From NCBI GenBank assembly GCA_018262975.1, contig JADFDG010000002.1:93523-157522 (forward strand): a stretch of DNA of 64,000 nt. Direction: 5' to 3'. The DNA comes from Gammaproteobacteria bacterium (GTDB lineage Bacteria > Pseudomonadota > Gammaproteobacteria > Pseudomonadales > JADFDG01). The first letter of the stretch is position 1. Each line of letters starts with the position of its first letter. The notes beneath the pieces are model-generated. The model did no database searches. It saw nothing but the letters and a program-made list of their open reading frames with translations, and had not been told where the DNA came from. The position numbers and the translations under genes were made by a program. Positions 1 through 46,317 of the stretch are shown in pieces.

Positions 1-529
1 TGGAAGGCTCGTCTGCCTTGAACAGTCGCGCGGAGCTGTACCCCAACATCCTCGCGAGGTATGCGGGCCTGGACTCCTCAAGCGGACCGCCCGCCCCGCC
101 CGACAACGCCCGTTCGGCGGCGCGGACGACACTCCGCGCAGAATCGAGCTCCCAGTAACGATGGAGGCCGACCACCTCCAGGTACTCGTGCCAAATGTTG
201 GCGTCGATGAACGCGGGGGTCAGCTGCGATTCGTCGAGAATCTGAACCCGGATCAGGGTCTCACCTGGCACCCGCGCATGGGCCTGCGCAGCCTGCACGA
301 GACGAACGTGGCTCGCGCACACGAATCGGTCGTCCCTACGCCGCCCGCCCCCTGCGACAACGTCTATCGTCGTATAAGACAGGGCCTGCCTGATCGCCTG
401 TCCGAGGGCTGTGCCGCTGCGACTCTCGCCCATCCGGTTGAGGCCCAACTCGGTCAACCGCGCCAGCAGACGGGTGTGCGGCCCGTCGAGTTGGTCCAGT
501 CGGACGGTAACAAAATCACCCTTCTTCAT
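1..529 (-). CDS. hypothetical protein (C-terminal part cut off by window edge)
   Basis: Absent from the ORF track because it is open at the window edge. The minus strand from ATG 529 (GGAGA 7 nt upstream; alternative ATG 541) has no in-frame stop down to nt 1, at least 176 codons (MKKGDFVTVRLDQLDGPHTRLL...). G/C is enriched at minus-strand third codon positions, unlike the antisense track ORF 161..772. No family recognised. Confidence 0.4.
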   Translation of the reverse strand, partial: MKKGDFVTVRLDQLDGPHTRLLARLTELGLNRMGESRSGTALGQAIRQALSYTTIDVVAGGGRRRDDRFVCASHVRLVQAAQAHARVPGETLIRVQILDESQLTPAFIDANIWHEYLEVVGLHRYWELDSARSVVRAAERALSGGAGGPLEESRPAYLARMLGYSSARLFKADEPS

Positions 530-983
530 ATTCGTCTCCATTCCGTTAGTTCAACGCACCACGAGATTTCTCGTTTTGCGTATGAATCTGACGGCGTGGC
601 CCCAACAAATCCGGGCCTTTTGGCGCTCCCTCAGCCAAAGAGAGGGACGATCGGTGCGGTTTTGGCGACAGGCGGCTACCCGCGGCCCTTTTCGCGCTAT
701 CTGCGCCTCCCCTCGGTCTCGAATCGGCGCGCACGGCCTATCCCGGCGAGGCTGCGGGCTCTGCGCGCGTAGGTGTTTGTATGGTGGGCTGCTGCCACGG
801 GCCGGGAAGGGGGCAGCGGATCAGGGAAAGCCCATCCGCTGAGGAAGGTGTCCCACCGGCTTTGAGTCTTACCGACTTCCCTTTGGCTCCGACCTCATTA
901 GACGCCGAATTGGACCGGCGCAGAAGCCGAGGCATGCCTCACGAGTTTCAGACCATGGGTTCACTTCAACACAGTTCTGTTTC

Positions 984-1967
984 TCAACCGAACAGGCTTC
1001 GCACGAGTGCTATGCCGCCCCCCACCACCGTGCCGATCGCACGCCCCACGGCAGCACCCGCGGGGCCGCCGATCATACCGCCCAGTGTCGTGCCGAGCGT
1101 GCCGCCCAGGGTGGCGCCGACGATTACCGATTCGACCAGTGAGGCGCTGATTTCGGCGCGGTAATCAGCCCTGCGGTCGTCGTCCTGCCACATGCGGCTG
1201 TCCTTGTTGATGTCCTGCGCGAAGGCAACGCGCTTCTCCTGCTTCGTGTGGCGCAGCATCCACACCAGAAGTTTTGCGAGGTTGTACGGGTTCTGCACTT
1301 GGCCGCCATCCTTGTACCCGGCGGCATAGTAGATGGGCTCGACATCCACCCCGGTCGCCTCCCTGATGCGCCGCTTTGTGGACGCGACCTTTTCCTCGAG
1401 GAAGGCTGCCAGAGTCGGATCGGGTTGGTTTTCGCCGTGGTTCCAATGGCGGCCCTTCATGGCCATGTCGGCCTGGTTGATCGCCACCAGCAGGCGGGAC
1501 TTGTCGTCGCCCAGGCTCGGGATGATCACCTGGTTGATCAGCTCGAACGAGGTGCCGAGGTCACGACTGCTGCCGTCGAGTACCACCAGCACGAGATCGA
1601 CCAGCAGGTTGCCATCGGCATCCTTCTCGCGCAGCTTGGCGGTGATGTTCTTTGCGTGCCGCAGGTCGGCTTCCTTGCCATCGCCCAGGCCCGGTGAGTC
1701 GAACAGCACGATGTTGTCGAACTCGTAGCGGACGATGTCCATCGTCTCGGGGTCCACGCCTTGGCCGACGCGGGCCTTCTGCGTGTTGAACAGCGCGTTG
1801 ATGGTCGAGGACTTGCCCGACCCCGTGGCGCCGGTGACCAGGATGTTCACCCGGGTGTCGCGCAGGCGCGCGACGTTGCGCAGGAGTTCGGTCTTTGCGC
1901 CTTCCGGCAGGTCCTTGCGGGTGTGGATCTCGCGGATCAGGTCGTCGACGATATGCTGGTGTTGCAT
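984..1967 (-). CDS. P-loop GTPase (YfjP/YeeP-like, MMR_HSR1 type) with C-terminal glycine-zipper membrane segment
   Basis: G1 GATGSGKSS, G3 DSPGLGD and G4 NQAD. The C-terminus VIVGATLGGTLGTTLGGMIGGPAGAAVGRAIGTVVGGGIAL is a GxxxG-rich hydrophobic stretch. Paralog of the next gene. Confidence 0.8.
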   Translation of the reverse strand: MQHQHIVDDLIREIHTRKDLPEGAKTELLRNVARLRDTRVNILVTGATGSGKSSTINALFNTQKARVGQGVDPETMDIVRYEFDNIVLFDSPGLGDGKEADLRHAKNITAKLREKDADGNLLVDLVLVVLDGSSRDLGTSFELINQVIIPSLGDDKSRLLVAINQADMAMKGRHWNHGENQPDPTLAAFLEEKVASTKRRIREATGVDVEPIYYAAGYKDGGQVQNPYNLAKLLVWMLRHTKQEKRVAFAQDINKDSRMWQDDDRRADYRAEISASLVESVIVGATLGGTLGTTLGGMIGGPAGAAVGRAIGTVVGGGIALVRSLFG

Positions 1968-2068
1968 GGTGGCAGTGCTCCGGTGTGATGTCTTTTCGTA
2001 TTGGGTGACGGGTGCAGTCTAGGTGCGGCGTGATGGCGGCCGATCAATCACAAGCTTGCGATGGCAAG

Positions 2069-2809
2069 TCAGGTGACGACCCGGCGGCTGCGCGGCACGT
2101 GCGCCGCGAGGTGGTCCACCAACCCCGGCAGGTTGTAGCGGGCGCGCGCGCTGTAATGCACCGGAAGCCGGATGTTGATGCCAGTTGATTCACGGATGCG
2201 GCGCTGTACGGAAGCCGCCTGGTCCACGAGAAAGGCCGCAAGCGCAGGTTCGGGCCGATTCATTGCCGCGCTCCAGTGCCGTCCTTTCATGGCCATGTCG
2301 GCTTGGTTGATGGCGACCACGATGCGGGCCGGCTCGATGGTGCGGGCCACGACGGTCTCGAGCAGGCGGAACGCCGTGCCTAGGTCCCGCGAACCGCCGT
2401 CGAGCACGACCAGTGCGAGATCGATCAGGCCATACCGTCCGCCATCGACGTGTACGGTGCGCGTCAGGGTTTCCGTGAGCTTGCGCGCATGACGCACGTC
2501 CGCCGCCACGCCGTCGCCGAGGCCGGCGGAGTCGTGGAAGCGGACACGGCGACTGAGGCTGTACCAGGACACCGCCTGCGTCTGCGGGTCGACACCGTCG
2601 CCGACCACCGCCACCCGCCGACCGAAGAGCGCGTTCAGCGTCGAACTCTTGCCGGTACCGGTGCCCCCGACCAGCAGGATGTCGAGTGGCAGCAGCAGGC
2701 CGGCGCCGGTCATACGCGCATCGAGGGCCCGGATGCTGGCGCCGAGCGCGTCGTCATGTTCCGGCGCCGCCATCACGGCAGCGCCAGCGATCTGCGAAAG
2801 AAATGCCAT
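2069..2809 (-). CDS. P-loop GTPase, tandem paralog lacking the glycine-zipper tail
   Basis: G1 GGTGTGKSS, G3 DSAGLGD and G4 NQAD. The block INQADMAMKGRHW...LAAFL...RRIRE(A/S)TG is nearly identical to the neighbouring gene. Start placed at the internal Met (MAFLSQIAG); the track ORF extends to 2914. Confidence 0.75.
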   Translation of the reverse strand: MAFLSQIAGAAVMAAPEHDDALGASIRALDARMTGAGLLLPLDILLVGGTGTGKSSTLNALFGRRVAVVGDGVDPQTQAVSWYSLSRRVRFHDSAGLGDGVAADVRHARKLTETLTRTVHVDGGRYGLIDLALVVLDGGSRDLGTAFRLLETVVARTIEPARIVVAINQADMAMKGRHWSAAMNRPEPALAAFLVDQAASVQRRIRESTGINIRLPVHYSARARYNLPGLVDHLAAHVPRSRRVVT

Positions 2810-3089
2810 GAGGCGCGTGTCCCGTTCCGTTTTCCGTGGGACACACGTTAGCGGGGCAGCCTGCTGCGGCTCCGTACGGCAAGATTGCGGTTGGGTTTCG
2901 CGGCGACCGGCCATCGCGCATGCCGGCCACCCCGGGTTATCGATTCCACCGCCGGGTGCTGCGTATCAACGCGAAGAACTGTAGCGATGTACGGTCGAGG
3001 GCCCAAGAGCACCCCTGATCTGTGAGGTGTATAGATTACGGCGTCCCGTCCTTCGCCTGCGCAGCAACGAGGCGTTAGAAAACCCCACG

Positions 3090-3193
3090 CCCGCCACGTG
3101 GCGGGATCGAGGCCTTACCCCATCACGCGCTGCGCTCGCGCTTCCACAAACTTGTGGCGGTGGGCGTCGGCTACCGGCCTTTCCGCAAACTTG
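3090..3193. promoter_or_regulatory. candidate operator/promoter region upstream of the DUF4258-csx16 pair
   Basis: Perfect 16-bp palindrome CCCGCCACGTGGCGGG (3090-3105). Palindrome CCACAA-AC-TTGTGG (3144-3157). Direct repeat TTCCRCAAACTTG at 3142-3154 and 3181-3193. Function not established. Confidence 0.25.
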
Positions 3194-3260
3194 CCCTTCC
3201 GCGGGTTTGGCGCCGGCGTAGTTACTGTGTGCCCACACATTGACGACGAGGAACGCTACC

Positions 3261-3557
3261 ATGCTCAGCAAGCACGCCACCGCCCGCATGCAGCAACGTG
3301 CCATCGACACCAACATTGTCGACCTGCTGCTCGCCCACGGCGCCCACTTCTACTCGGGTGGATCCGAGGTCTACCTGCTGGACCGCAAGACGCGGGAATA
3401 CATGCAGTCGCACCGCGTGGTGCCCGTCAACGTGCTGGAAAAGTTGCGCGACGCCTACATCGTTGTCGCGAACGATGGCACGATCGTCACCGCCGGCCAC
3501 CGCCATCGCCGGTTTCTCCGGGACATTCCCGGCTATCGCGAGAATGAGTCGGCATGA
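3261..3557 (+). CDS. DUF4258-like small protein (toxin-like fold family)
   Basis: MLSKHATARMQQRAI... resembles the DUF4258 N-terminal H-A-x-x-R-M-x-x-R-x-I signature. GAGGA lies 9 nt upstream of ATG 3261. The stop overlaps the next gene's start (ATGA). Confidence 0.6.
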   Translation: MLSKHATARMQQRAIDTNIVDLLLAHGAHFYSGGSEVYLLDRKTREYMQSHRVVPVNVLEKLRDAYIVVANDGTIVTAGHRHRRFLRDIPGYRENESA

Positions 3558-3883
3558 CAGTCTGGTTCGTCACGCGCCATCCCGGCGCCTTGGACTGGCT
3601 CTACCGCCAGGGCCTGCGCGCAGACCGCGTGGTGCCTCACCTCGACCCGTGCAGTGTGGCTGAAGGGGACACGGTGATCGGCATATTTCCGGTCAACCTG
3701 GTGGCGGAGCTCTGCGAGCGCAACGTCCGCTACCTGCACATCAGCGTGCGGCTGCCACCGGCATTGCGCGGCGTTGAGTTGAGCGCAACGCAACTGGACC
3801 TGCTGGGCGCGACACTCGAGCAGTTCAGCGTACAGCGCCTGCCGGCCGCCGGTCAGGCGACCGAACCAAGCAACCGGGACTGA
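3554..3883 (+). CDS. csx16: Csx16-like protein (VVA1548 family; candidate cyclic-oligoadenylate ring nuclease family)
   Basis: 109 aa. MTVWFVTRHPGALDWLYRQGL...GDTVIGIFPVNLVAEL...RYLHISVRLP...RGVELSATQL matches my recollection of the Csx16/TIGR02620 pattern (M.T.F.(S/T)RHPGA..W....G; G..PVNLAAE). From memory, not searched. Confidence 0.65.
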   Translation: MTVWFVTRHPGALDWLYRQGLRADRVVPHLDPCSVAEGDTVIGIFPVNLVAELCERNVRYLHISVRLPPALRGVELSATQLDLLGATLEQFSVQRLPAAGQATEPSNRD

Positions 3884-3902
3884 TCGCCCGCACCCACGGA
3901 AC

Positions 3903-5162
3903 CTAGGCCCGCGACAGGCGCTTCACCGCCTTCGCCATGAACGGACCGAGTTCGCCGAATTCCCGGTCCGTCAGGAAGCCGCCCGGGGCGCTGTATACGC
4001 CTTCCTCGGCGCGAATGGAATACGCGGAAGACAGCGCGCCTTCCAGTGCTGTCTGGCAACGCGACAAGCGCGGCCGGAAGAAATGCTCGATATCCGCCGG
4101 TGCGTTTTTCCACCCCGGCGCCGCCATTTCCTGGCGCAAGGCATCCACCAGCGTGTCCGCGCTCTCGCCCGGCAACCGGTCCAGCCACGCTTTCGCCGCC
4201 TGGTATTCGAGGAAGCAGCGACGCAGGTGCGCGGCATAGCGGTCGGTGTAGCGGTCGCCGTCACGCACCAGCACCGCGTCGCCCTGGCCGGCTCGCGCGC
4301 GCCACGCGAGCCAGTAAATCGCCACCACCTGCGCCGGCTCCAGCGCCAGCCGCGTGGCGCCGAACTTCACCCAGGCGTCGCCACGGCGCGCCGAGCACTC
4401 CATCGGCAGGACCACGCCGGACTGTTCTTCGGCGATGGCTCGCAGGATGTCCTCGAATTGCATGTCGGCGTTTTTCAGGCGCGTGATGTTGGTGGCCTTC
4501 GCCAGGCTCACCACCGGGAATTCGGTCATTTCGATGATGTCCGACGCATCCGCCGGGCTGCCGTTGCGCAGGAGCTCATCCTGACCGGGGTAGAAGAAAT
4601 CGTCCGATTCGTATCCCTGCTTCACGATGATGTGGGAGATGGTGTCGCCGGGGCGACCGAAGATGTTCATGGACTGCCCGAGGTAGTAGCCCATGGTCTT
4701 GCGGCCGCCGGCAATCGAGGCGTGGATGCGGCAGGGCACCTTCCGCTCGGGGTCGGTAAAGGCACGCACCACGCGCAGCACGGTGTTGGCAAAGGCGGTG
4801 AATTCCCGGGAATTGCGCACGTCCTCGAATTCGCGGCCGTGCTCGTCGCGCGGCACGTGCACGTCCTCCAGCGCGAACGCCATCGGCCAGCCGTTGGACC
4901 GGCACATCCGTTCGACACGCGGCGTATCGAACAATTGCTCCTTCAGGAGGCGCCGGCCCTTGCCGCTGGTAATCACCACGACCCGGTCGGGAACGAACGG
5001 GTCCGGACGGCGCAGTTTCGCGATGGCGTACCAGGTTTCGGTCAGGACAGAAGGTGTCGTGCCCAGCACGGCAAGCAGGATGTTTTCCGGGCGGGATGCC
5101 GCGGCATTCGCGGCGCGCCGACGCGGCGCTTTTCCCTGCGTGACTTGTGGCTTGCTGTCCAT
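3903..5162 (-). CDS. CARF-domain protein, Cas_NE0113 (Csx14)-type, with uncharacterised C-terminal half (possibly wHTH)
   Basis: ILLAVLGTTPSVLTETWYAI, FVPDRVVVITS, the E-DVRN region, HASIAGGRKTMGYYLG..FGRPGDTISHIIV...DFFYP. Together these form the characteristic NE0113-family CARF signature. About 200 C-terminal aa are unassigned. Confidence 0.8.
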   Translation of the reverse strand: MDSKPQVTQGKAPRRRAANAAASRPENILLAVLGTTPSVLTETWYAIAKLRRPDPFVPDRVVVITSGKGRRLLKEQLFDTPRVERMCRSNGWPMAFALEDVHVPRDEHGREFEDVRNSREFTAFANTVLRVVRAFTDPERKVPCRIHASIAGGRKTMGYYLGQSMNIFGRPGDTISHIIVKQGYESDDFFYPGQDELLRNGSPADASDIIEMTEFPVVSLAKATNITRLKNADMQFEDILRAIAEEQSGVVLPMECSARRGDAWVKFGATRLALEPAQVVAIYWLAWRARAGQGDAVLVRDGDRYTDRYAAHLRRCFLEYQAAKAWLDRLPGESADTLVDALRQEMAAPGWKNAPADIEHFFRPRLSRCQTALEGALSSAYSIRAEEGVYSAPGGFLTDREFGELGPFMAKAVKRLSRA

Positions 5163-5320
5163 TTTTCACCCTCGCCTGCCATGCCGGCCGCCATTCATCC
5201 CCCGAATGCGACCGCTCGGTGTGTTACTCACGAAGTCTGACAATACCACCTTGAACCATCCCGAGGGGGCCTGCGAAAGTACCGGCGCTGCGTGCAATCA
5301 ACAAGAAGTCCGGGACCAGG

Positions 5321-5638
5321 ATGTCCGACGTACACACGCCTGCCTTGCCGCAAGGCTCACACGCTTCCATGCCGGCCGCGGCCTCGCTGCTTGGCGAACT
5401 CGACGCACACCTGCAACACCTCGTGCAGGGCCATTCCCGCTATACCCGCCACTGCCTCTACCGCGGCGACACCGCGCTTGCCACCTACGACCGCGAGTGG
5501 GCGCAGTCGATGTCCACGCAGCTGGACGCCTTCGCGGCGGACATTCGTGCGAACGCGTGGCACTCGGACAACTACTGGGACCAGCTGCCGGCCATGTGGC
5601 TCATCGAGCAGGCCTACCAGCTCGCAGCGAGGTATTAG
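5321..5638 (+). CDS. small hypothetical protein (first gene of the array divergent from the CARF gene)
   Basis: 105 aa with strong GC3 bias consistent with real coding sequence. No family recognised. Confidence 0.5.
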   Translation: MSDVHTPALPQGSHASMPAAASLLGELDAHLQHLVQGHSRYTRHCLYRGDTALATYDREWAQSMSTQLDAFAADIRANAWHSDNYWDQLPAMWLIEQAYQLAARY

Positions 5639-5770
5639 GGGGCTTCCGCAAGATTGTGGAAACGGGCAGCCGCGGACGTTTCCCTATGATGCCGATCATT
5701 CACCGCCGCGAACCGAATCGCGACGGCACGCAAACCAGACAACCCTTTCATTCCGGAGTCGCAAGCCACC

Positions 5771-6442
5771 ATGGCTACCGAATTTGCCATCGCCAGCCCC
5801 CGCCCCCTCCCCGTCATCATCCTGGCCGACGTCAGCGGCAGCATGGAGGAAGACGGCAACATCCACACCATGAACGCCGCGCTCAAGGACATGCTGCGCG
5901 CCTTCCGCGAGGAAAGCCGCCTGCGAGCCGAGATCCAGGTGGCGTTGATCACCTTCGGCGACACGGCCACCGTGGCGCACACGCTGCAGCCGGCACACAC
6001 CGTGGCGCCGTGGCCGGACCTCACGGCCCATGGCATGACGCCGATGGGCAAGGCCATCGAGCTCGCCCGCGCAATGCTCGAGGACAAGGACCAGGTGCCC
6101 TCGCGTGCGTATCGCCCGGTGGTGGTGCTGGTATCCGACGGGCAACCCAACGACGAGTGGGAAAAGCCGCTCGCTGCGTTCGCGGCCTCCGAGCGCGCCT
6201 CCAAGGCGACGCGTTTCGCCATGGGCATCGGCAACGGCGCGGACATGGCCGTGCTCAGGCGCTTTGCCAATGACCGCGAGGCGCCGGTATTCCATGCCCA
6301 CCAGGCAAGGGACATTCACCGGTTCTTCCGCGCCGTGACCATGAGCGTGGCGCAGCGGACGCAGTCGAACAGCCCGAACGATCCGGTGCCGCTGAAGGTG
6401 GTCGACCTGCCGGCCGACGACCTCGACCTGGACAACCTGTGA
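5771..6442 (+). CDS. vWA-domain protein, TerY-like
   Basis: MIDAS-type start PVIILADVSGSM, later TPMG and VVVLVSDGQPND. Length and layout are typical of TerY/vWA proteins. Confidence 0.85.
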   Translation: MATEFAIASPRPLPVIILADVSGSMEEDGNIHTMNAALKDMLRAFREESRLRAEIQVALITFGDTATVAHTLQPAHTVAPWPDLTAHGMTPMGKAIELARAMLEDKDQVPSRAYRPVVVLVSDGQPNDEWEKPLAAFAASERASKATRFAMGIGNGADMAVLRRFANDREAPVFHAHQARDIHRFFRAVTMSVAQRTQSNSPNDPVPLKVVDLPADDLDLDNL

Positions 6443-7137
6443 TCCGCGTGGCTGGCGCCACCGCTACCGGGCCGTACCACGTGCGCGCGCGGCAGCCCAA
6501 CCAGGACGCCGTACTCGCCCATGGGTGGCGCGGCGGCTGCTTGCTGGCCGTCAGCGACGGCCTCGGCTCGCGGCCACGCAGCCAGATCGGTTCGCGTGCT
6601 GCCGTCCGCGCGGCACGGGCGGTGGTTCGCAACAGTCCGGAGCCGGACCTGGTCACGCTCGCGGAGCGAATCCGGCAGGCGTGGGAAGCCGGTATCGCAC
6701 CGTACGCGCCAGCAGAAGTGGCCTGCACGCTGCTGGTCGCGGCCGTCGATGCGCAAGGCAACGGATTCGCGGCCCAACTCGGCGACGGGCTTGCCCTTTG
6801 GCATGACGGCGAGCACCTGCACGTCATCAGCCAGCCAAAGCCGGACTTCTCCAACGAAACCAGCGGGCTCGGAATTTCGCGGAGCACGTCGGACTGGACG
6901 TTCGCAGCCATTTCGCTGGCGAAGCCCGACAGCGGCATCGTGCTCATGTCGGACGGCGTAGCAGACGACCTGCAGCCCGACAGTCTCGCCAACACGATCG
7001 CGCTGCTCCGACAACGGCTCGCACAACGCAGTCGCCGCGCCCAGCAGCGATGGCTCCTGCGCCAATTCGCCGGCTGGCCGGCTCACGCCGGTGATGACGA
7101 CAAATCGATGGCCATGGCTTTCAGGTGCTCTGCATGA
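6439..7137 (+). CDS. PP2C-family Ser/Thr phosphatase
   Basis: NQDA, LLAVSDGLGS, LGDG and VLMSDGVADDL motifs. The GTG start overlaps the vWA stop (GTGA). Confidence 0.8.
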   Translation: MIRVAGATATGPYHVRARQPNQDAVLAHGWRGGCLLAVSDGLGSRPRSQIGSRAAVRAARAVVRNSPEPDLVTLAERIRQAWEAGIAPYAPAEVACTLLVAAVDAQGNGFAAQLGDGLALWHDGEHLHVISQPKPDFSNETSGLGISRSTSDWTFAAISLAKPDSGIVLMSDGVADDLQPDSLANTIALLRQRLAQRSRRAQQRWLLRQFAGWPAHAGDDDKSMAMAFRCSA

Positions 7138-8549
7138 ACGACACCCGTACCGACAAGAAGTGCCGCACGGTCTACGACCAGCACGGCACCGCCCATGAAC
7201 TCGTCGCCATGCTCGGGCGCGGCGGCCAGGGTGGCGTTTACACCACCACCATCCCCAACGTGCTGGTCAAGCTCGTCAACAAGACCGACGAGGACACCGT
7301 GCGCGAATGGAAGCAGCGGTTCCGCTGGATCATGTGCCAGCCCCTGGAAGCGTTGCACATCGCCAGGCCGCGTGCGGTGATCGACCGGCCCTCGTCACGC
7401 GCCGGCTACGTCATGGAGCTCATGGACGGGCTGGTGCCGCTCGGCAGGCTGCTGGTGGAGACGCGCGACTGCCAGCGCACCGGGCAAGGGCTGACCGCCT
7501 TTCACCAGAGCGGCAGTGTACGCCGGCGCTTCCGGCTGCTCGCCAAGCTCGCGCGGCAAATGGCCGAACTGCATGGCCGCGGCCTGATCTACGGCGACCT
7601 TTCGCCGCACAACGTGTTCGTGTCTGCGGACAACGAGCATGACGAAGTCTGGCTCATCGACTGTGACAACCTGAGCGTGCTCAGCCGCGTCTCAGGTGCC
7701 CGGGTCTACACGCCCGATTACGGCGCGCCCGAGGTCATGCGTGGAGAAGCATTCATCGACCCGAATACGGACAGCTGGAGTTTCGGGGTAATTGCCTTCG
7801 AACTGCTGTCGATGGCCCACCCGCTCAAGGGCGACAAGGTCAACGAGGGCGAGCCGGAGCTCGAAGAGCAAGCGTTGCTCGGCGAATTTCCGTGGATCGA
7901 CGCACCAGAAAGCGAGGAGAACCGCAGCAGCCAGGGAATCCCGCGGATACTGGTGACCACCAAGCGTCTGCGCGCGTTGTTCGAGCGCTGCTTTGGAGCC
8001 GGTCGGCAGGACCCGGGGCAACGCCCGTCGCTTGCCGAATGGGCGGAAGGATTCGAGGCGGCCGACGCCGTTACTGTCCTGTGCCCGGGGTGCAGTGCCT
8101 CCTACGTGATACGCGGCGCCAAGGAATGCCCTTTCTGTGGCGCTCCCGAGGATCGCAGCCGGATCGTCATCCTGACCCATTACGACTACATGCCGCCGGC
8201 CTGCTTTCACGACCTGCTCGGCAAGGACCACGCAGGGGTGCTCGTCACCAAGACGGGCTTCGGTGCCGTGCTCGCCGACCGCCCGCTCGAACTTCGCCTG
8301 TCGCCCCCCGGTCGGGCCGCGTGGGCAGACAGCGACCCCCTGTGCACACTGACACTGCGGGAGAACACCCTCCACATCGAGCCACGCAATGGGGCCTCCT
8401 ACGTGCTGGGCCAGGTGGGTGGCGGCGATCCGGTGCGTTTTACTCGCCCCCGCGAGCTGCCCCGCACCGCCGGAAGCAGCGCGCGCACCTACGAGCTCCA
8501 CCTGGGCGACACCGGTGGCCTGCACCCGATGTGGGGATTCGGGTGGTAA
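7134..8549 (+). CDS. Ser/Thr protein kinase with C-terminal zinc ribbon and unassigned domain
   Basis: Gly-rich loop GRGGQGGVY, catalytic loop YGDLSPHNVFV, LIDCDN (DFG-equivalent), YTPDYGAPE (APE). Zinc ribbon CPGCSASY...CPFCG. ATG 7134 overlaps the PP2C stop (ATGA); the track start is GTG 7125. Confidence 0.85.
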   Translation: MNDTRTDKKCRTVYDQHGTAHELVAMLGRGGQGGVYTTTIPNVLVKLVNKTDEDTVREWKQRFRWIMCQPLEALHIARPRAVIDRPSSRAGYVMELMDGLVPLGRLLVETRDCQRTGQGLTAFHQSGSVRRRFRLLAKLARQMAELHGRGLIYGDLSPHNVFVSADNEHDEVWLIDCDNLSVLSRVSGARVYTPDYGAPEVMRGEAFIDPNTDSWSFGVIAFELLSMAHPLKGDKVNEGEPELEEQALLGEFPWIDAPESEENRSSQGIPRILVTTKRLRALFERCFGAGRQDPGQRPSLAEWAEGFEAADAVTVLCPGCSASYVIRGAKECPFCGAPEDRSRIVILTHYDYMPPACFHDLLGKDHAGVLVTKTGFGAVLADRPLELRLSPPGRAAWADSDPLCTLTLRENTLHIEPRNGASYVLGQVGGGDPVRFTRPRELPRTAGSSARTYELHLGDTGGLHPMWGFGW

Positions 8550-8552
8550 CGC

Positions 8553-11500
8553 ATGAAACTCTGTGAATTCGCCCTGACAGACCCGACGCTCTTCCGGTTC
8601 CGCGAGGACACGATTCAGCCGACGACCGGCTGGGTCGCCGACGAAGAACTCGAGCTGCTGAAGACCACCGACGGGCTGTATCTCGCGAAGCAGGGCGATG
8701 CGCTCACGACGCTCGTGCCCGTGGATCGGCGCGGCGAAGTCGACCTGCTGCTGACGCAGCGAACGGTGTTCTGGATCTTGCGCAACGATCCGTCGGGCGG
8801 GAAGGGTGCGTTCGAATTGCAGCTCGTGAGGCCTCTCGAATCCCGGGAGGTGGACGAACTGGAAATCTGCATCGACGACAAGGTGGCGGAATTTCTGGCT
8901 CGCCGCAATGAGATACCCAACGCGGATGCGGGCCAGGCCGTGGACTGGTGCCGCGACGAGTTCCTGTCGGATTCCGGTGGCATCCCCCGCCTGTTCGTAG
9001 CACGGCATGGCAATGACGCCACAGGGACCTACCAGCTCATCGGCCGCCGCTATCGCGCGGACACCGCCATCGACGCCGCCGGCAAGTTGCTGGTCAGGCG
9101 CCTGGCACCAGTTCCCTCCCCGGCACCGGATTTCGTAGTGCTGACCGGCTCCATCGCCTTCGTCGATTACTCGGTTGCCATACGCCTGCTGGGCGCTGCC
9201 CAACAGGCTGCCCTCGAACAGGCGACCGCTTCCAACCGTGGCTACCTAGACCTGTGGCGCCGCTATGCCGAGAAGGAGTGGGAAGTCTGCGTGAACGACG
9301 CGGCCAAGATCGGCAGCATCCGTTTTCACGGAACCCGCGAACGCGATGACGGCCCGGGCTATGTCTTCAAGACGGACCCGGCGCAATTGCAGGAATTCCG
9401 CCAACGCTGGAACGGCGTTGCCACGAGCGACGACACGCAACTTGCCGTGGACGACGAGGCACCGACCTGGGACCCCGCGGATCCAAACTCGTACGCGTCG
9501 ATCGGCTATCGAGGCGGCGGCTTTGCCGGCAGTGTTGTCCGCTTCCTGGACGACGGCATCGAGATCAAGTCGAACTACGACACCGCCCCACCTGAACGCG
9601 GGTACCTGTTCGTTTCGCTGTCCGGCGAGCGGAAGATGCAGAAGCGCCGTGAGGAGGCTTACCTCGGGATCGAGAGCCGGGCGCGGCTGCCGCAGTTGCG
9701 CTGGCTGCTCGAGGAGCTGCCGGTCGACGTGGCATCCCACCAGCGATTTACGCCGGTAATTACCCCGGCGGTGCGCCGCATCTTCCGCGAGGAACCGACC
9801 CAGCGCCAGCGGGACGCGATCGACGTAGCGCTGCACACCCCGGACATCGCCCTGATCATCGGCCCGCCCGGTACGGGTAAGACGCAGGTCATCGCGGCCA
9901 TCGAGCGGCGCCTGGCCGAGGACAGCAGTGCCACGCGGGATCACCGGGTACTTATCTGCAGCATCCAGCATGATGCGGTGGACAATGCCCTTGAACGTAC
10001 CCAGGCGTTCGGGCTGCCGCCGTTGCGCGTCGGCGGCAAGGAAAACGCCCGCAATGAAGGGGGGGACGCGGTAATCCAGTGGTGCGATCACAAGCAGAAG
10101 GTCGTCTCGCAGCACATCGAGGAGCGTGAAAAGAGCGAGCCTGATGCGCCGCTGCTGCGCCAGGTGACGGAGGCCATTGCCCAACTGCGGTTTGGCCATC
10201 TCACCGCAGCAAGCCGGCTGCAGATGTTCGAGGAACTGGAGACCAACCTGCAGGCCCTCGCCGACCGTGGCGTCCGGCTGCCCACCCCGGTGGTCGTGGA
10301 GCTCGAGACCTACCTCGCGTATGCGCGCACCCGGACGGCGGCCGCCCGCCCGGAGCACCGCAGTCATTTGCAGCCCCTGATCCGTGCGCTGCGAACGACA
10401 ACCGAGGGCTTCCTGGACGACGGCCCCGCGCGCGCCCGGCGGCTGACCGATGCCCTGGCCGGTGATGTGTCGGCAGCCCGCTATCACCCGCGGCTGGCCG
10501 AATTCACTGACTGGGACGGCGTCTCGCCTGCAACGGATTTCCTGGAGCGCGCTGCGCGACTGCGCGCCGAACTGCTGGAGTGGTCACTGCCCGACTACCG
10601 TCCCCCCGCCGTCCGCACCCGACTGGACGACGAGGGTGACCGTGTGCTCGCCGAAATCGAGGCCGCCCTGTCGAGCCACCTGGCACGCAGCCGCCGCGGG
10701 ATCACGGGCGTGCTGACCAACTTCCGCGATGCCCTGTTGCACTCGCCGAGGCGGGCACACGATTCGGCTGCCGCCTATGCCCACGTCGTGGGCGCCACCT
10801 GCCAGCAGGCACTGCACCGCGACATGGCCACCGTGCAGGACGTTTCGCGCGCCGACGTAGCGTCGATCAGCTTCGACACGGTGATCATCGACGAGGCAGC
10901 GCGCGCCAACCCGCTGGACCTGTTCGTGCCGATGTCACTGGCGACGCGCAGGATCGTACTGGTCGGCGACCATCGCCAGCTGCCGCACCTGCTGCAGGCG
11001 GACATCGAGGAAGAGGTATCCGAAGACCTCAACCTCGAGGAGGCCCAGCGGCGAGCCTACAAGGAGAGCCTATTCGAGCGCCTGTGGCGCCAGCTGAGCC
11101 AGCGCCAGCTCGAGGGTGATGCACGCCGCGTCGTCATGCTCGACACACAGTTCCGCATGCACCCCGTGCTGGGCGACTTCGTCAGCCGCCAGTTCTATGA
11201 GCGACACGGCCTGGACCGCATCGAGTCCGGGCGCAAGCCGGAGTCCTTTGCCTCGGACATTCCCGGTTACGAGAACAAGGTCTGTGCGTGGATCAATGTG
11301 CCCGGCCATGACGACTCCCGCCGCGAACGCCGCAACAAGGTGCGCAGCCTGTACCGCGACACCGAGGCGAAGGTCGTGGCCGAGGAGGCCGCGCGCCTGC
11401 TGCATCAATGCGACCGCGCACTGAGCCTCGGCATCATCTCCTTCTACCGTGCGCAGGTAGACGCCATCTACCGCGAACTGGCGAAACGCGACATCGCCGA

Positions 11501-11873
11501 GCCGGACGGCAAAGGCGGCTATCGCCTGCTGTCCGAATACCGGCACACGCCGGACGGTGGCGAACGCCTGCGCATCGGCACCGTCGACGCATTCCAGGGC
11601 AAGGAATTCGACATCGTCATCCTGTCGGCGGTCAGGTCGAACAATCAGCCCCGGCCACGCACCGGCGCCGCCGATGCGGAGCGCGCGGCCAACACCTGTT
11701 ATGGCCACCTCCGGCTCTCCAATCGCCTCAATGTGGCGATGAGCCGCCAACGCAGCCTGCTGATCACGGTCGGCGACCTCGACTTCATGTGCGAGCCGTC
11801 GGCACGCGAATATCTCCCGGAGATCCAGGCGTTCATTGAACTCTGCAGGAGCGAACATGGCAGCGTTCGCTGA
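8553..11873 (+). CDS. Upf1/DNA2-like superfamily-1 helicase (AAA_11/AAA_12) with ~400-aa unassigned N-terminal region (CnuH-like)
   Basis: Walker [12 protein letters not shown], Walker B VIIDEAARA, LVGDHRQLP, LDTQFRMHP, GIISFYRAQV, TVDAFQGKEFDIVILS, RLNVAMSRQR. Confidence 0.85.
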   Translation: MKLCEFALTDPTLFRFREDTIQPTTGWVADEELELLKTTDGLYLAKQGDALTTLVPVDRRGEVDLLLTQRTVFWILRNDPSGGKGAFELQLVRPLESREVDELEICIDDKVAEFLARRNEIPNADAGQAVDWCRDEFLSDSGGIPRLFVARHGNDATGTYQLIGRRYRADTAIDAAGKLLVRRLAPVPSPAPDFVVLTGSIAFVDYSVAIRLLGAAQQAALEQATASNRGYLDLWRRYAEKEWEVCVNDAAKIGSIRFHGTRERDDGPGYVFKTDPAQLQEFRQRWNGVATSDDTQLAVDDEAPTWDPADPNSYASIGYRGGGFAGSVVRFLDDGIEIKSNYDTAPPERGYLFVSLSGERKMQKRREEAYLGIESRARLPQLRWLLEELPVDVASHQRFTPVITPAVRRIFREEPTQRQRDAIDVALHTPDIALIIGPPGTGKTQVIAAIERRLAEDSSATRDHRVLICSIQHDAVDNALERTQAFGLPPLRVGGKENARNEGGDAVIQWCDHKQKVVSQHIEEREKSEPDAPLLRQVTEAIAQLRFGHLTAASRLQMFEELETNLQALADRGVRLPTPVVVELETYLAYARTRTAAARPEHRSHLQPLIRALRTTTEGFLDDGPARARRLTDALAGDVSAARYHPRLAEFTDWDGVSPATDFLERAARLRAELLEWSLPDYRPPAVRTRLDDEGDRVLAEIEAALSSHLARSRRGITGVLTNFRDALLHSPRRAHDSAAAYAHVVGATCQQALHRDMATVQDVSRADVASISFDTVIIDEAARANPLDLFVPMSLATRRIVLVGDHRQLPHLLQADIEEEVSEDLNLEEAQRRAYKESLFERLWRQLSQRQLEGDARRVVMLDTQFRMHPVLGDFVSRQFYERHGLDRIESGRKPESFASDIPGYENKVCAWINVPGHDDSRRERRNKVRSLYRDTEAKVVAEEAARLLHQCDRALSLGIISFYRAQVDAIYRELAKRDIAEPDGKGGYRLLSEYRHTPDGGERLRIGTVDAFQGKEFDIVILSAVRSNNQPRPRTGAADAERAANTCYGHLRLSNRLNVAMSRQRSLLITVGDLDFMCEPSAREYLPEIQAFIELCRSEHGSVR

Positions 11874-13350
11874 CCGCTATCTCCGCTACGAGCGCGGGCC
11901 CAAAGGCAGCAAGACCGTGCTTTGGCCGGTCTATGCCTGGCCCGTGTACTTCCCGACACCGCGGCGCAATCAACTGGACCTCTTCCAGGAAGCCATTCTC
12001 GGGCTGATGCGTGCCGGCGTACGCCAGGCGCGTGATATCGGCGACTTGCTCGCCCTCGACGCCGAACTCGTGGCCTTCATCATTTCCGCCACCCTGATCC
12101 CCGAAGGCTGGACCGACCGGAACGGCCGCCTGACCGAAAAGGGAGAACGCGTGCTCGAGACCGGCAACACCCGCGCCGACGACATGACCCGCGGCGTCGT
12201 GTTCCAGGACGCCGTCACGTTGCGACTGTGGCCCCGGTTTTCCCGCATGCCTCTTGAGGAGATTGAAGCCCTGGAGCAGGGCGATTCACACCGCCCACGA
12301 TTCATGCTGAACAGGACGAGTGGCTTCTCCGTGAAACCCTTCCTGGTGGAAGGTGCGCGTCCCTGGCGATCCACGCCGACGGCATCCGATATCTTCGAGG
12401 CCTTTCGCGAGTTCCTCGGCGACGCGAACCGGCGGCGAGGCGACGGTGGCGACGAACTGGCGCAGCGCGTCCGCTCAGGCGATATCCGCCTTGCCTCACA
12501 AAATCCGGAGCCGTACTACCTCTGGGTCGATGCCTATCGAAACCCTGAGAGCAGTTACCCGTGGCTGATCGCCGATCCTTTCGGTTACATCGACGCGGCG
12601 CCCTGGCTTCGCCACAACGTGGCACGCAAGCTCGATGGGTCTGCCGACGGCAGGCCTGACGCGCCGCTCGCGGGATACCTGAAGACGCTGTACGACAAGT
12701 CCGAGACCGCGAACGACTCTTTCGACGCCTATTTCAGGGAGATCGACGAGAGGGTAAACCTCGAACTGATGGCGAAGTATCCCGGGGTAACCAAGGACAA
12801 GCGAATCGCGGAGCAGTTCGCCACAGTGCTGCGCGTATCGGAGCACCTTCGGTCGCTTGGCAGGCACGTCAAATCCGACGCCATCGATTCCCTGATGAGC
12901 GAGAACCAGAAGCTTGGCGAAGTCGTCCTCAAGCAGGTCTATCGGCAGTTCACGATCCCGGGCGACAAGGTGCCGGTCGCGTGGAAGTACAAACAATTGC
13001 GCCAGGCCTACGCCGCCATGAACCTGGCCTTTCTCGATCAGGACGCCCTCGATGCGCTGCCGAAGGTGCCGGCCGATTCCGTCAACTCCGCAATTGACAG
13101 GAACGGTGACGTCTCGCTGAAGGCCTGCGTCGCGCTCAATGTGTTTTCCGCCTGGAAGCATTCCGGCCACCCGTTCAACAGCATGACAGCGGCAGACACA
13201 GGTATCGGCCGGCTGATAGCCCTTGCCAATGACCGCAACCTGTCAAGCCACGCCTCAGACCCCGGCCGCGGAAAGAACACGGCCGACAAAGCACTTGCTC
13301 ACGCCGATTTCATCACCGCGTGGGCCGCCCAATTCACCAACTGGTACTGA
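11857..13350 (+). CDS. hypothetical protein with C-terminal HEPN-like RNxxxH motif
   Basis: ATG 11857 is preceded by GGAG and overlaps the helicase end by 17 nt. Near the C-terminus, LANDRNLSSHAS fits the HEPN R-x4-H (RNxxxH) motif. The N-terminal region (LFQEAILGLMRAG...) may be wHTH. Weak by-eye call. Confidence 0.5.
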   Translation: MAAFADRYLRYERGPKGSKTVLWPVYAWPVYFPTPRRNQLDLFQEAILGLMRAGVRQARDIGDLLALDAELVAFIISATLIPEGWTDRNGRLTEKGERVLETGNTRADDMTRGVVFQDAVTLRLWPRFSRMPLEEIEALEQGDSHRPRFMLNRTSGFSVKPFLVEGARPWRSTPTASDIFEAFREFLGDANRRRGDGGDELAQRVRSGDIRLASQNPEPYYLWVDAYRNPESSYPWLIADPFGYIDAAPWLRHNVARKLDGSADGRPDAPLAGYLKTLYDKSETANDSFDAYFREIDERVNLELMAKYPGVTKDKRIAEQFATVLRVSEHLRSLGRHVKSDAIDSLMSENQKLGEVVLKQVYRQFTIPGDKVPVAWKYKQLRQAYAAMNLAFLDQDALDALPKVPADSVNSAIDRNGDVSLKACVALNVFSAWKHSGHPFNSMTAADTGIGRLIALANDRNLSSHASDPGRGKNTADKALAHADFITAWAAQFTNWY

Positions 13351-13353
13351 ACC

Positions 13354-15723
13354 ATGGGAAAAAAGGACAAGAACAAGTACAACAGCAGCATCCCGCAGCA
13401 GACCGCCCGCCAGGCACCCGCTCCGGCCAAGGTGGACACCCACAAAGTCGTTGCTGCGGCAGCGAACATTGCTTCGCTGACCGGCGGGCACGCACCAGCC
13501 TGGGACGAGAAGCAACTCACGTCGCTGGTTGACGTGCTGGATGGCGATTCACGCCAGCGGTTTGCCTCGATTGCGGAAGAGCTCGCCTCGCTGGGCCGCG
13601 CCGCACGCGAACTCGTCGAAACGCGGGACGCCATTCAGGCGGAGCTTGATCGCCGGCATGCCGAACTGAAGGACCGTGAACGGATGCTTTCCGAGGCGCA
13701 GGCGGAGGCCGAGCGCCTGCGCGCGGAGGCGAGCAAGACTGCCGACCAGGCGAACGCACGACGGCTCGAACTGATTGAGATCGAGCAGCGGGTTGCGCGG
13801 GAGGAAGCCAAGGTCAGGAACGGCTGTATTGACGAGCGCGAGGCCGCCCTGCGCGAACTTCGCGTGGAGATCGACACACTGCTCGACCGCAAGAAGGACC
13901 TGCTGCTCGAGAATGAGCGAGCGCGGCAGTCCATCTCTGCGGAGAGGGCCGCCCTGCAGGAACAGGCACTGGCTCTACTTGAGGTTGAGCGCAAGGCGCT
14001 GGACGCTCGACAGGCCGATCTCCAGCGCGAGGCGACGAGGGTGAAGCATCTTGCGATGGACGTCGAGGCGAAGCGCTCTGCCGACATGGCCCTTCTTGAT
14101 CAGGAGAAGGAGCACCTCCGCTCACAGTTCTTGCAGAATGAGGAACACCTAAAGATCAAGCTGGCCATTGCCGAAAGCCGGGCCAAGAGGATCGCCGAGG
14201 GAGAGGCTCGCCTACAGCAGGAGCTCCAGCAGTACGAGGAACTGCGCGACGTGCTGGCCGGTCGGCCGCCCGCCTCGCTGGTGGACGAGCTGGACGAGCT
14301 GCGTCGCGAGCGCAACGCCCTTGCCTCCAGGGTCGCAGAACTGAGCTCGCTCAGCAGCACACGCGACTACGAGCGGGTCGCACACGAGCGTGAGGACCTC
14401 TCCGCGCGCCTGGCGGAAGCCGAATCCCGTCTCGCGGCAGCCAACGCAACCCTGGGAGCGCACCGGACCTTGGCATACGAGCGCGCCTCGCTCGAGAAGG
14501 AAAACGCCCTGATGAAGGGAAAGACCACGCTCCTCGACGGCATGATCAAGGAACTCCAGGCACAGATCGACACGCTGACCAACCAGCAGCAACAGAAGGT
14601 CCCGTTCCCGGAGTGCTCCAGGATGGACGCGCCCGAGTTCCAACGCCCCGTTGCCGTAGAACCCGTTCCGGAACTGCAGCAGTTCGCGGAGGAGTTGCGG
14701 CACCGTATTGCGCAATCCGAGCCTGGCAACCCGCTGTACTACGATGCGTCCACGCTGCGCCTGTTCATTGGCGGCCTGGCAATGAGCCGCCTGCACGTAC
14801 TGCAGGGCATCAGCGGCACCGGCAAGACCAGTCTCGCCCAGGCCTTCACCAAGGCCGTTGGCGGTCATTGCGAGGTGATCCCGGTACAGGCCGGCTGGCG
14901 TGACAAATACGACTTGCTCGGACACTACAATGCGTTCGAAAAGCGCTATTACGAGAAGGACTGCCTGCAGACCCTCTACCGCGCCCAGACCGAGGCTCAC
15001 CGGGACCAGCTTCACGTCGTCCTGCTTGACGAGATGAACCTGTCGCGTCCCGAGCAGTATTTCGCGGAGTTCCTGTCGGCCCTCGAGCAGAAGGAGAGCT
15101 CCCGGATCATCACGCTGATGGAATCGGCACCGGCGAACGCCCCGAGCCTGCTCATCGATGGCCGCCGCATCCGGGTGCCCAACAACGTCTGGTTCATTGG
15201 TACCGCCAACCATGACGAAACGACGCACGAGTTTGCGGACAAGACCTACGATCGCTCGCACGTGATGGATCTGCCGCGCCATGTCGGCACCTTCGATATT
15301 CACAAGTTCGAGCCAACGCGCTATTCGTATTCGTCGCTTGAGGAGGCATTCCGGAAGGCCTGGAGCAAACACGAGAAGGCGTGCGCGAGCTTCCTGCGCT
15401 TTGTCTCGCACAGCGAGTTCACCCAGGTGCTCGAAAATACCTATGGCCTGGGTTGGGGCAACCGCTTCGAGCGCCAGGCGCACCACTTCCTGCCGGTGGT
15501 GAAGGAGTGCGGCGGCACCTTCGAGGAAGGTCTCGACCACCTGCTGGCCACCCGCATGTTCCGCGCCGGCAAGATCGCTGCGCGCTACGACCGCACAGCG
15601 GAAGACCTCAAGAAGATCGAGGATGCACTGCTCAAGACCTGGAAGCAGAACAAGCTGGCCGGCGAGCCCGAGCGATGCATGGACCGGATCCGCAAGGACC
15701 GCCTGCGCTACGGGGCGGAGTGA
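13354..15723 (+). CDS. McrB-like AAA+ GTPase with ~350-aa N-terminal coiled coil (CnuB-like)
   Basis: Residues ~60-420 are charged, Ala/Leu/Glu/Arg-rich and heptad-like (ELKDRERMLSEAQAEAERLRAEA...). The C-terminal AAA_5/McrB core has GISGTGKTSLAQ (Walker A), VVLLDEMNLSRPEQYFAEFLS (Walker B region) and WFIGTANHDET (compare the McrB NTAD motif). Confidence 0.8.
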   Translation: MGKKDKNKYNSSIPQQTARQAPAPAKVDTHKVVAAAANIASLTGGHAPAWDEKQLTSLVDVLDGDSRQRFASIAEELASLGRAARELVETRDAIQAELDRRHAELKDRERMLSEAQAEAERLRAEASKTADQANARRLELIEIEQRVAREEAKVRNGCIDEREAALRELRVEIDTLLDRKKDLLLENERARQSISAERAALQEQALALLEVERKALDARQADLQREATRVKHLAMDVEAKRSADMALLDQEKEHLRSQFLQNEEHLKIKLAIAESRAKRIAEGEARLQQELQQYEELRDVLAGRPPASLVDELDELRRERNALASRVAELSSLSSTRDYERVAHEREDLSARLAEAESRLAAANATLGAHRTLAYERASLEKENALMKGKTTLLDGMIKELQAQIDTLTNQQQQKVPFPECSRMDAPEFQRPVAVEPVPELQQFAEELRHRIAQSEPGNPLYYDASTLRLFIGGLAMSRLHVLQGISGTGKTSLAQAFTKAVGGHCEVIPVQAGWRDKYDLLGHYNAFEKRYYEKDCLQTLYRAQTEAHRDQLHVVLLDEMNLSRPEQYFAEFLSALEQKESSRIITLMESAPANAPSLLIDGRRIRVPNNVWFIGTANHDETTHEFADKTYDRSHVMDLPRHVGTFDIHKFEPTRYSYSSLEEAFRKAWSKHEKACASFLRFVSHSEFTQVLENTYGLGWGNRFERQAHHFLPVVKECGGTFEEGLDHLLATRMFRAGKIAARYDRTAEDLKKIEDALLKTWKQNKLAGEPERCMDRIRKDRLRYGAE

Positions 15724-15726
15724 CGC

Positions 15727-17559: not shown

Positions 17560-17724
17560 GTTGCGCTTGTTGATGGCGGCCAAAAGCCGGAGCGAACCCC
17601 TGTACGAGTTGCGCGGGACCCATAAAACATTAAGGCTTGGATAGTCCAAAATCTCTCATGAAATGTTTGTAATTCTTTACAACAAAGACATATGCGTTGG
17701 CGCAAGGTTTGATTGAGGCTATAT

Positions 17725-46305: not shown

Positions 46306-46317
46306 GGAGGTTCCGCC

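Follow-up and report, generated by a model that had tools for sequence, protein, structure and literature searches.

The subject of this analysis is a locus at the left end of a 64,000-nucleotide stretch of contig JADFDG010000002.1 (positions 93,523 to 157,522; henceforth the window, in whose coordinates positions are given) from a gammaproteobacterium of the order Pseudomonadales (assembly GCA_018262975.1). It has two parts: a trio of genes coding for a DUF4258-like small protein, the ring nuclease Csx16 and a CARF-domain protein; and, across a divergent intergenic region, a long operon that we relate below to the CoCoNuT systems. The features of the trio and of the region that links it to the operon are the following (aa, amino acids; ORF, open reading frame; HMM, hidden Markov model; AF2, AlphaFold2):

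3142..3202, + strand: candidate operator or promoter element 5' of the DUF4258-like gene, recognized by its direct repeats
3261..3557, + strand: DUF4258-like (BrnT/RelE-like) small protein, 98 aa, from a sub-cutoff Pfam match plus a family-level link
3554..3883, + strand: Csx16 ring nuclease, 109 aa, from PF09652, TIGR02620 and PADLOC
3903..5162, - strand: CARF5/NE0113-type CARF sensor with a probable divergent OmpR/PhoB-type winged-helix domain, 419 aa, from HMMs and an AF2 model
5163..5320, no strand: 158-bp divergent intergenic region between the CARF start and a 105-aa ORF, from sequence reading
5321..5638, + strand: the 105-aa ORF (orf105), first ORF of the CoCoNuT strand, preceding the vWA gene, with coding-like GC content at third codon positions

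The DUF4258-like gene ends in a stop codon that shares bases with the start codon of csx16: the sequence itself reads ATGA at 3554-3557, within a junction GGCATGAC at 3551-3558, and the homologous junction in locus L005 is likewise GGCATGAC. The csx16 and CARF genes are convergent, with 19 bp between them, and the CARF gene is in turn divergent from the operon. An earlier reading made from the letters of this DNA (the sequence-only reading) had described this overlap, the tail-to-tail pairing and the divergence across 158 bp from what it called a TerY-P/helicase/McrBC array, and each of these holds, orf105 being the first ORF beyond the intergenic region. The latter ORF has a GC content of 0.63/0.50/0.84 at the three codon positions; it has no match in Pfam, NCBIfam or PADLOC, and a homologue is absent from all comparison loci retrieved.

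The family memberships given to Csx16 and the CARF protein by the sequence-only reading are borne out by profile searches. Csx16 is recovered with PF09652 (E=1.9e-32, 111.7 bits against a cutoff of 25), TIGR02620 (E=2.5e-31, 107.7 bits, cutoff 46.35) and the PADLOC Csx16 profile (E=2.4e-36), the HMM match being full-length (profile positions 1-92 of 93). Conservation across 17 members of the family reaches 90% or more at 20 columns, and the window protein retains every one of these, including R8, H9, G11, W15, D39, R72 and E75; it is 57% and 71% identical to the Csx16 proteins of the type III locus L001 and of L005, respectively. For the Csx16 family, the role of ring nuclease had been put forward as only a prediction, a qualifier that is now outdated: another member is a proven ring nuclease in vitro, specific for cyclic tetra-adenylate (cA4) (PMC12409355).

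The CARF protein matches PF09623 (Cas_NE0113; E=5.1e-25, 88.9 bits, cutoff 23) and TIGR02584 (E=1.3e-38, 133.1 bits, cutoff 80.65), both above cutoff, as well as the PADLOC profile 'CARF5--CARF' (E=9.3e-61, residues 26-379); the clade label CARF5 used throughout is taken from the PADLOC profile names. It is divided into a sensor part (residues ~26-231) and a C-terminal domain (residues ~232-419). In an AF2 model of the full-length protein (pLDDT, its predicted score in the local distance difference test, 87; predicted template modelling score, pTM, 0.83) the CARF domain shows its Rossmann-like fold, and the structures nearest to it are the CARF domain of Cad1 (CARF5) and the Crn1 ring nucleases. 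All 13 residues invariant across its 42-member family are present, and its ligand-site motifs read GTTPSVLTET (G-x-[ST]-P) and SIAGGRKTM (the S-x-A-G-G-R-K-T loop). Since every invariant or conserved family residue is intact in both CARF protein and Csx16, neither gene resembles a relic, and both are likely to be functional.

The C-terminal domain, when modelled alone, attains a pLDDT of 86.7 and displays a three-stranded sheet followed by helices and a terminal β-hairpin 'wing', a topology compatible with a winged helix of OmpR type into which helices have been inserted. A profile built from 21 C-terminal domains of the family and compared with PDB sequences gave OmpR/PhoB DNA-binding domains in all of its 17 matches, the best being ArlR (E=0.0049), and hhalign assigned a probability of 69.6% over 37 columns comprising the β-sheet and helix 1 only. 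This evidence, moderate as it is, agrees with the prediction in 2014 that NE0113 proteins are transcription regulators (PMC4012209). Hence, the C-terminal half is probably a divergent version of the OmpR/PhoB winged helix.

By their relationships, the three genes of the trio clearly derive from accessory modules of type III CRISPR systems. The closest homologue of the CARF protein (48% identity) lies in L001, a type III locus that also encodes RAMPs, Cas1, Cas2, Cas6 and Card1, where it is convergent with Csx16 exactly as in the window. From genomes we retrieved 80 loci of the CARF family, the best genome match being 41% identical to the window protein; context was counted on the 50 loci of at least 12 kb (49 retrieved and the window itself). 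Cas genes or CRISPR arrays are present in 46 of these 50, the window being among the four without; Cas6 is directly upstream of the CARF gene in 44, Cas10 (Cmr2 or Csm1) occurs in 38, and Csx16 accompanies the CARF gene in 15. The closest relatives of the DUF4258-like protein (L003 and L004, 86% identity; L005, 78%) likewise all adjoin Cas6: in L005 the DUF4258-like gene and csx16 are followed by a convergent cas6, and in L003 and L004 the gene abuts cas6 plus a second NE0113-type CARF gene. As a separate observation on these type III loci, the CARF/Csx16/DUF4258 genes of L001 (4524-9806) and L003 (216-4197) adjoin a conserved divergent unit coding for a Peptidase_M16_C protein of 440 aa, a 749-aa ATPase with two AAA domains and a protein of 138-149 aa, followed in L001 by Card1; this may be an undescribed ancillary module.

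The operon on the far side of the intergenic region has the following constitution:

5771-6442, + strand: vWA protein of the TerY-P triad (VWA, E=3.1e-15), MIDAS motif DVSGS
6439-7137, + strand: PP2C phosphatase of the TerY-P triad (PP2C_2, E=5.6e-37)
7125-8549, + strand: Ser/Thr kinase with zinc ribbon, of the TerY-P triad (Pkinase, E=2.7e-16; CPGC...CPFC in the tail)
8553-11873, + strand: CnuH-like UPF1-type superfamily 1 (SF1) helicase, 1106 aa (AAA_11/AAA_12, E=1e-35 to 1e-40; PADLOC MkoA, E=2e-93)
11836-13350, + strand: CnuE-like winged helix-turn-helix (wHTH) effector (wHTH-PRTase_assc, E=5.4e-6, just under cutoff; RxxxxH at residues 339 and 467)
13354-15723, + strand: CnuB/McrB-like AAA+ GTPase (AAA_5, E=2.7e-7; PADLOC PDC-M26A, E=3.1e-41)
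15727-17559, + strand: putative CnuC/McrC-like partner, 610 aa, named from its position, with no HMM match and a Cys-rich C-terminus

Thus, the TerY-P triad, with its MIDAS-bearing vWA protein, PP2C phosphatase and zinc-ribbon kinase, stands at the 5' end. A TerY-P triad, the CnuH helicase, CnuE and an McrB-like gene are the components described for Type II/III-A CoCoNuTs (Bell et al. 2024, PMC11090510), and because gene content and order match these, the operon at 5771-17559 is, as judged from its genes, a Type II-like CoCoNuT system. The sequence-only reading had the right genes here and did not recognize them as a CoCoNuT. The same gene order recurs in the loci L145, L159, L160 and L161: identity to the L145 operon is 58% for the vWA protein, 39% for PP2C, 43% for the kinase, 41% for the helicase and 31% for CnuE; the helicase is 38-41% identical over its full length to those of L145 and L159, and the CnuE-like protein 30-33% identical to the equivalent genes of the homologous operons.

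The canonical upstream module of such CoCoNuTs comprises an RtcR-like CARF-AAA+-HTH activator and a sigma-54 promoter, often with a BrnT/DUF4258-like gene (PMC11090510). We compared the 5' flanks of homologous operons, which were found by a metagenome scan with the DUF4258-like family and then sampled through the vWA protein, giving five independent loci: the L145 group, L159, L160, the L161 group and L164. An RtcR-like CARF-AAA-HTH gene (by PADLOC and by Pfam RtcR/Sigma54_activat) is found immediately upstream of the vWA gene in four of the five, with L164 as the exception; a DUF4258-like gene stands beside it in three (the L145 group, L159, in which it is divergent and 42% identical, and the L161 group), and is absent from L160 and L164. 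In the L145 loci a relative 33% identical to the window protein lies directly upstream of the operon, preceded by an RtcR/PspF-type CARF-AAA-HTH gene (PADLOC E=6.8e-187). Furthermore, in all four RtcR-linked loci the stretch that separates rtcR from the operon contains a sigma-54 -24/-12 promoter with two mismatches or fewer. These TGGCAC-N5-TTGC-like sites are located just 5' of the DUF4258/vWA genes (L159:7951, L160:6768, L161:7442, L145:7908) and are consistent with transcription of the operon being driven by RtcR.

This canonical RtcR/DUF4258/sigma-54 architecture is absent from the window. A tblastn search found neither an rtcR homologue nor a remnant of one in window 1-8000, and there is no sigma-54 -24/-12 match in the window even with up to three mismatches; 5163-5320 also has no match to the sigma-70 consensus. 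The DUF4258-like gene and the operon are kept, and the slot of the CARF regulator is taken by the CRISPR-type NE0113 CARF protein and Csx16. The most economical reading of this arrangement is a non-orthologous displacement of RtcR by a type III accessory cassette; that the trio indeed serves the adjacent CoCoNuT operon as its module for sensing and regulation, in place of RtcR and its sigma-54 promoter, is a proposition to which we give about an even chance.

Under this proposal, the NE0113/CARF5 protein would bind a cyclic oligoadenylate by means of its CARF domain, most likely cA4, the ligand implied by the specificity of Csx16 together with the affinities of CARF5. Its OmpR/PhoB-like winged helix would then alter transcription from the 158-bp divergent region, inducing the CoCoNuT upon alarm, and it might act on the DUF4258-csx16 promoter as well. 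Csx16, translated together with the DUF4258-like protein, would degrade cA4 and thereby reset the switch. By analogy with the cross-talk seen with Csa3 (PMC8844856), the most plausible provider of the cA4 would be a type III CRISPR-Cas system encoded at another place in the genome. We advance more tentatively, at somewhat below even chances, the fuller version: that a CoCoNuT has exchanged RtcR and sigma-54 for a captured CARF-winged-helix/Csx16/BrnT-like module, such that cA4 from a Cas10 elsewhere or, in a bolder variant, from a non-Cas10 source, triggers a second, unrelated abortive-infection system with a built-in timer.

A candidate site for such a regulator lies 5' of the DUF4258-like gene. 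The sequence TTCC(A/G)CAAACTTG is directly repeated at 3142 and 3181, 39 nt apart, and a second direct repeat, GCC(T/C)TTCCGC, occurs at 3177 and 3193; L003, L004 and L005 keep the proximal repeat copy, TTTCCGCAA(A/G)CTTGC..TTCC, some 70 nt 5' of the ATG. The 9-mer motif GCAAACTTG shows no enrichment across the whole window. On the strength of this pattern, the repeats at 3142-3202 are a candidate binding site for the winged-helix regulator.

The DUF4258-like protein itself reaches only 19.2-19.5 bits with PF14076 (E=0.0012-0.0015; cutoff 25). Its wider family comprises 1949 representative clusters, and because 26 of 52 sampled members match PF14076 (best E=6.5e-8), the window protein probably belongs to a divergent branch of DUF4258. 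Comparison of the family profile with PDB sequences gave only ankyrin-repeat matches, which we judged to be spurious. Relatives adjoin RtcR and TerY-P in the L145 group, L159 and L161/L162. The sequence-only reading had presented this gene as toxin-like and coupled to csx16; rather than as a toxin specific to Csx16, it is better read as a component shared by CoCoNuT and CARF modules, because BrnT-like genes directly upstream of CoCoNuTs have already been described (PMC11090510). The family behaves like a mobile leader gene and not a fixed toxin-antitoxin pair. Across the metagenome loci L088-L158, its downstream neighbours include a 196-aa membrane protein (10 loci), a 197-aa protein (9), a TerY vWA protein (6) and a 698-aa protein (4), and upstream other genes recur, such as one for a 321-aa protein (11 loci).

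Several observations weigh against a regulatory tie between the trio and the operon. With respect to the C-terminal domain, a Foldseek search against the PDB returned nothing significant (best E=0.25, with BaeR and MtrA among the weak matches), and single C-terminal sequences against Pfam gave only noise and no Trans_reg_C match, so that the winged-helix assignment is only moderate. The suggestion in the sequence-only reading that this half is a wHTH controlling the divergent operon thus gains support, from the exclusively OmpR/PhoB profile matches and from the CARF-type activator in four of five homologous operons, and is tempered by the lack of a significant structural match. With respect to the DNA, there is no repeat or operator common to 5163-5320 and the DUF4258-csx16 promoter region, and the CARF gene is divergent from the operon, whereas RtcR is co-directional with its own. 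With respect to context, TerY-P/CnuH homologues are found in none of the 80 CARF-family genome loci and NE0113/Csx16 in none of the five other CoCoNuT-type loci, which leaves the window as the single instance of a CoCoNuT-type operon fronted by NE0113/Csx16 among the loci sampled. The homologous operon of L164, with no CARF regulator at all, indicates that the slot need not be filled. Finally, Cas10, CD-NTase, SMODS and GGDEF have no Pfam or PADLOC match among the plausible ORFs of at least about 150 aa in the window. It is also a general feature of defence islands that they often juxtapose unrelated modules.

These points lend themselves to the foremost alternative, namely that the trio is a chance neighbour in a defence island: a piece of a type III accessory module that has strayed or been translocated, and that either works in trans with a type III locus elsewhere, regulating cas or accessory genes, or is decaying, with no functional tie to the CoCoNuT. 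The closest relatives of all three genes do sit in type III loci, the CARF family is overwhelmingly cas-linked, no second pairing of NE0113 with a CoCoNuT was found among the sampled loci, and some CoCoNuT-type operons, as L164 exemplifies, have no CARF regulator. Moreover, CARF homologues outside CRISPR loci are abundant (PMC12669027), and trans-acting ring nucleases have previously been proposed. What this explanation leaves as a coincidence, and an unlikely one for a random insertion, is that the CARF gene occupies the exact slot of the CARF regulator, beside the same DUF4258-type accessory gene, in a locus that lacks rtcR as well as the sigma-54 promoter; decay in particular is at odds with the intact conserved residues of CARF and Csx16. 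We consider it unlikely on balance, though it is the strongest competitor of the regulatory proposal.

A second alternative, which we regard as improbable, retains the regulatory role and changes the ligand: RNA with a 2',3'-cyclic phosphate, released by the BrnT-like RNase or the CoCoNuT HEPN, would be sensed without the need for any cyclase, with Csx16 trimming or removing the ligand. Bell et al. propose RNA with cyclic-phosphate ends as the CoCoNuT signal (PMC11090510), no cyclase was found in the window, and the RelE/BrnT-like gene is translationally coupled to csx16. Against this, the domain belongs to CARF5, its structural neighbours Cad1 and Crn1 bind cA4 or cA6 (cyclic hexa-adenylate), Csx16 is cA4-specific in vitro (PMC12409355), and the residues needed for BrnT toxicity are not all conserved in the CoCoNuT-linked relatives (PMC11090510). 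A third alternative is very unlikely: that the trio is counter-defence cargo of a mobile element, with Csx16 as an anti-type III ring nuclease in the manner of AcrIII-1 and the CARF-wHTH protein as its cA4-sensing controller, finds some encouragement in the two phage genomes that contain Csx16 (PMC12409355) and in the variable left junction (Logan contig L002 matches window 911-2706 at 100% identity, with no relation outside that segment), but no integrase, tRNA or phage genes were detected in the window, a search of viral contigs with the DUF4258-like family gave no match, and the context is that of a chromosomal defence island.

Returning to the proposed regulatory module, no generator of its signal is visible in the window. 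The sequence-only reading had noted the absence of an array, cyclase or CD-NTase in the 64 kb, and array scans, Pfam and PADLOC all agree: within the window there is no CRISPR array, cas gene, Rfam family or tRNA, with only 3.2 kb of it lying to the left of the trio. The annotation between 22 kb and 64 kb consists for the most part of housekeeping genes (FtsH, transketolase, GAPDH, PGK, aldolase). The CARF-Csx16 pair is hence an orphan within the window, and its description as a sensor and off-switch without a visible signal generator holds in its HMM identities and orphan state. The simplest source would be a type III system elsewhere in the genome that supplies cA4 in trans.

The sequence-only reading had also named an adjacent radical SAM/phosphoribosyltransferase (PRTase) cassette as a possible source of the ligand. 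This we rejected as unsupported, given a weak viperin-like match and no PRTase domain detected in the cluster. The cluster (17713-20743) consists of three genes with a GC content of 0.56-0.60, as against about 0.66 elsewhere, coding for a radical SAM protein (weak prokaryotic-viperin match, E=6e-6), a PHP phosphoesterase (E=5e-22) and a 376-aa protein without a match; these genes may constitute another, uncharacterised defence cassette that follows the CoCoNuT.

Three other parts of the window are worth noting. At 984-2914 lies a pair of small GTPase paralogues that share about 48% identity, with MMR_HSR1 and IIGP matches and weak LeoA-like ones, the first having a glycine-zipper-like tail at its end; they have no detectable relation to the dynamin-like GTPases beside the L159 operon. 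Left of 911, contig L002 departs from the window and carries genes for DUF2188 and LRAT in place of the window sequence; the sharp breakpoint is either the junction of a variable island or a chimeric assembly. At 45700-50792, lipoprotein genes of LpoB-like and CsgG-like type precede the gene for a TPR-CHAT (caspase-like) protein of 1165 aa; these may form a conflict or signalling system of their own, with no relation to the CARF/CoCoNuT locus. The HD-domain protein at 51375-52697 matches the PADLOC dGTPase defence model (E=1.3e-68), and could be either a housekeeping or a defence dGTPase.

Among known systems, the nearest is the RtcR-associated Type II CoCoNuT (PMC11090510), with which the locus shares TerY-P, a UPF1-like helicase of CnuH type, a CnuE-like wHTH effector, the McrB-like gene and a putative McrC-like gene in last position, as well as a putative CARF-domain regulator and a BrnT/DUF4258-like small gene at the 5' end. 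It differs in that the regulator is not the sigma-54-dependent RtcR but a divergently transcribed NE0113/CARF5 CARF with a probable OmpR-like winged helix, and in having a dedicated Csx16 ring nuclease and no sigma-54 promoter match. The functional precedent is Csa3, a transcription factor of the CARF-wHTH kind: it binds cA4 and couples the signalling of type III systems to the genes of type I CRISPR (PMC8844856, PMC8699464). By analogy, both would fuse a CARF domain to a winged helix and let the cyclic oligoadenylate of one immune system control the transcription of another; the window protein belongs to a different CARF clade (CARF5/NE0113) with a different type of probable winged helix, and its presumed target is a type IV restriction-like, RNA-targeting system. 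With the NE0113 (TIGR02584) and Csx16 accessory genes of type III-A/B systems the locus shares both families, the convergent arrangement of L001 and the conserved residues; in those loci the CARF gene is typically placed between cas6 and the cmr/csm genes, whereas here there is no cas6, RAMP, cas10 or array in 64 kb. As in the BrnT/BrnA and DUF4258 toxin-antitoxin pairs, a small RelE/BrnT-like protein comes first and overlaps the start of the next gene, but that gene is a ring nuclease and not a BrnA-like antitoxin, and the genes that follow the relatives are of widely differing kinds.

CARF regulators and BrnT-like genes upstream of CoCoNuTs (PMC11090510), and orphan CARF genes (PMC12669027), were already known. 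We found no CoCoNuT preceded by an NE0113-type CARF-wHTH protein with Csx16 in the CoCoNuT paper (PMC11090510), in two supplementary files to it or in the survey of ring nucleases (PMC12409355).

To our knowledge, CoCoNuTs are known solely from computational prediction. Their proposed control by CARF proteins has so far rested on the analogy with RtcR and on an unproven RNA-fragment ligand. Were the juxtaposition described here due to chance, the finding would shrink to an ordinary orphan accessory pair. The locus offers a testable handle on CoCoNuT regulation, in the form of a defined ligand, a 158-bp target region and an off-switch. If the proposal is correct, type III CRISPR systems and type IV restriction-like ones would be able to exchange regulatory sensor modules, and the DUF4258/BrnT-like protein would be no simple toxin but a part that CARF-controlled defence modules have in common. 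A CRISPR alarm could then license an unrelated suicide or dormancy system, and signalling between immune systems would extend beyond the CRISPR-to-CRISPR case of Csa3.

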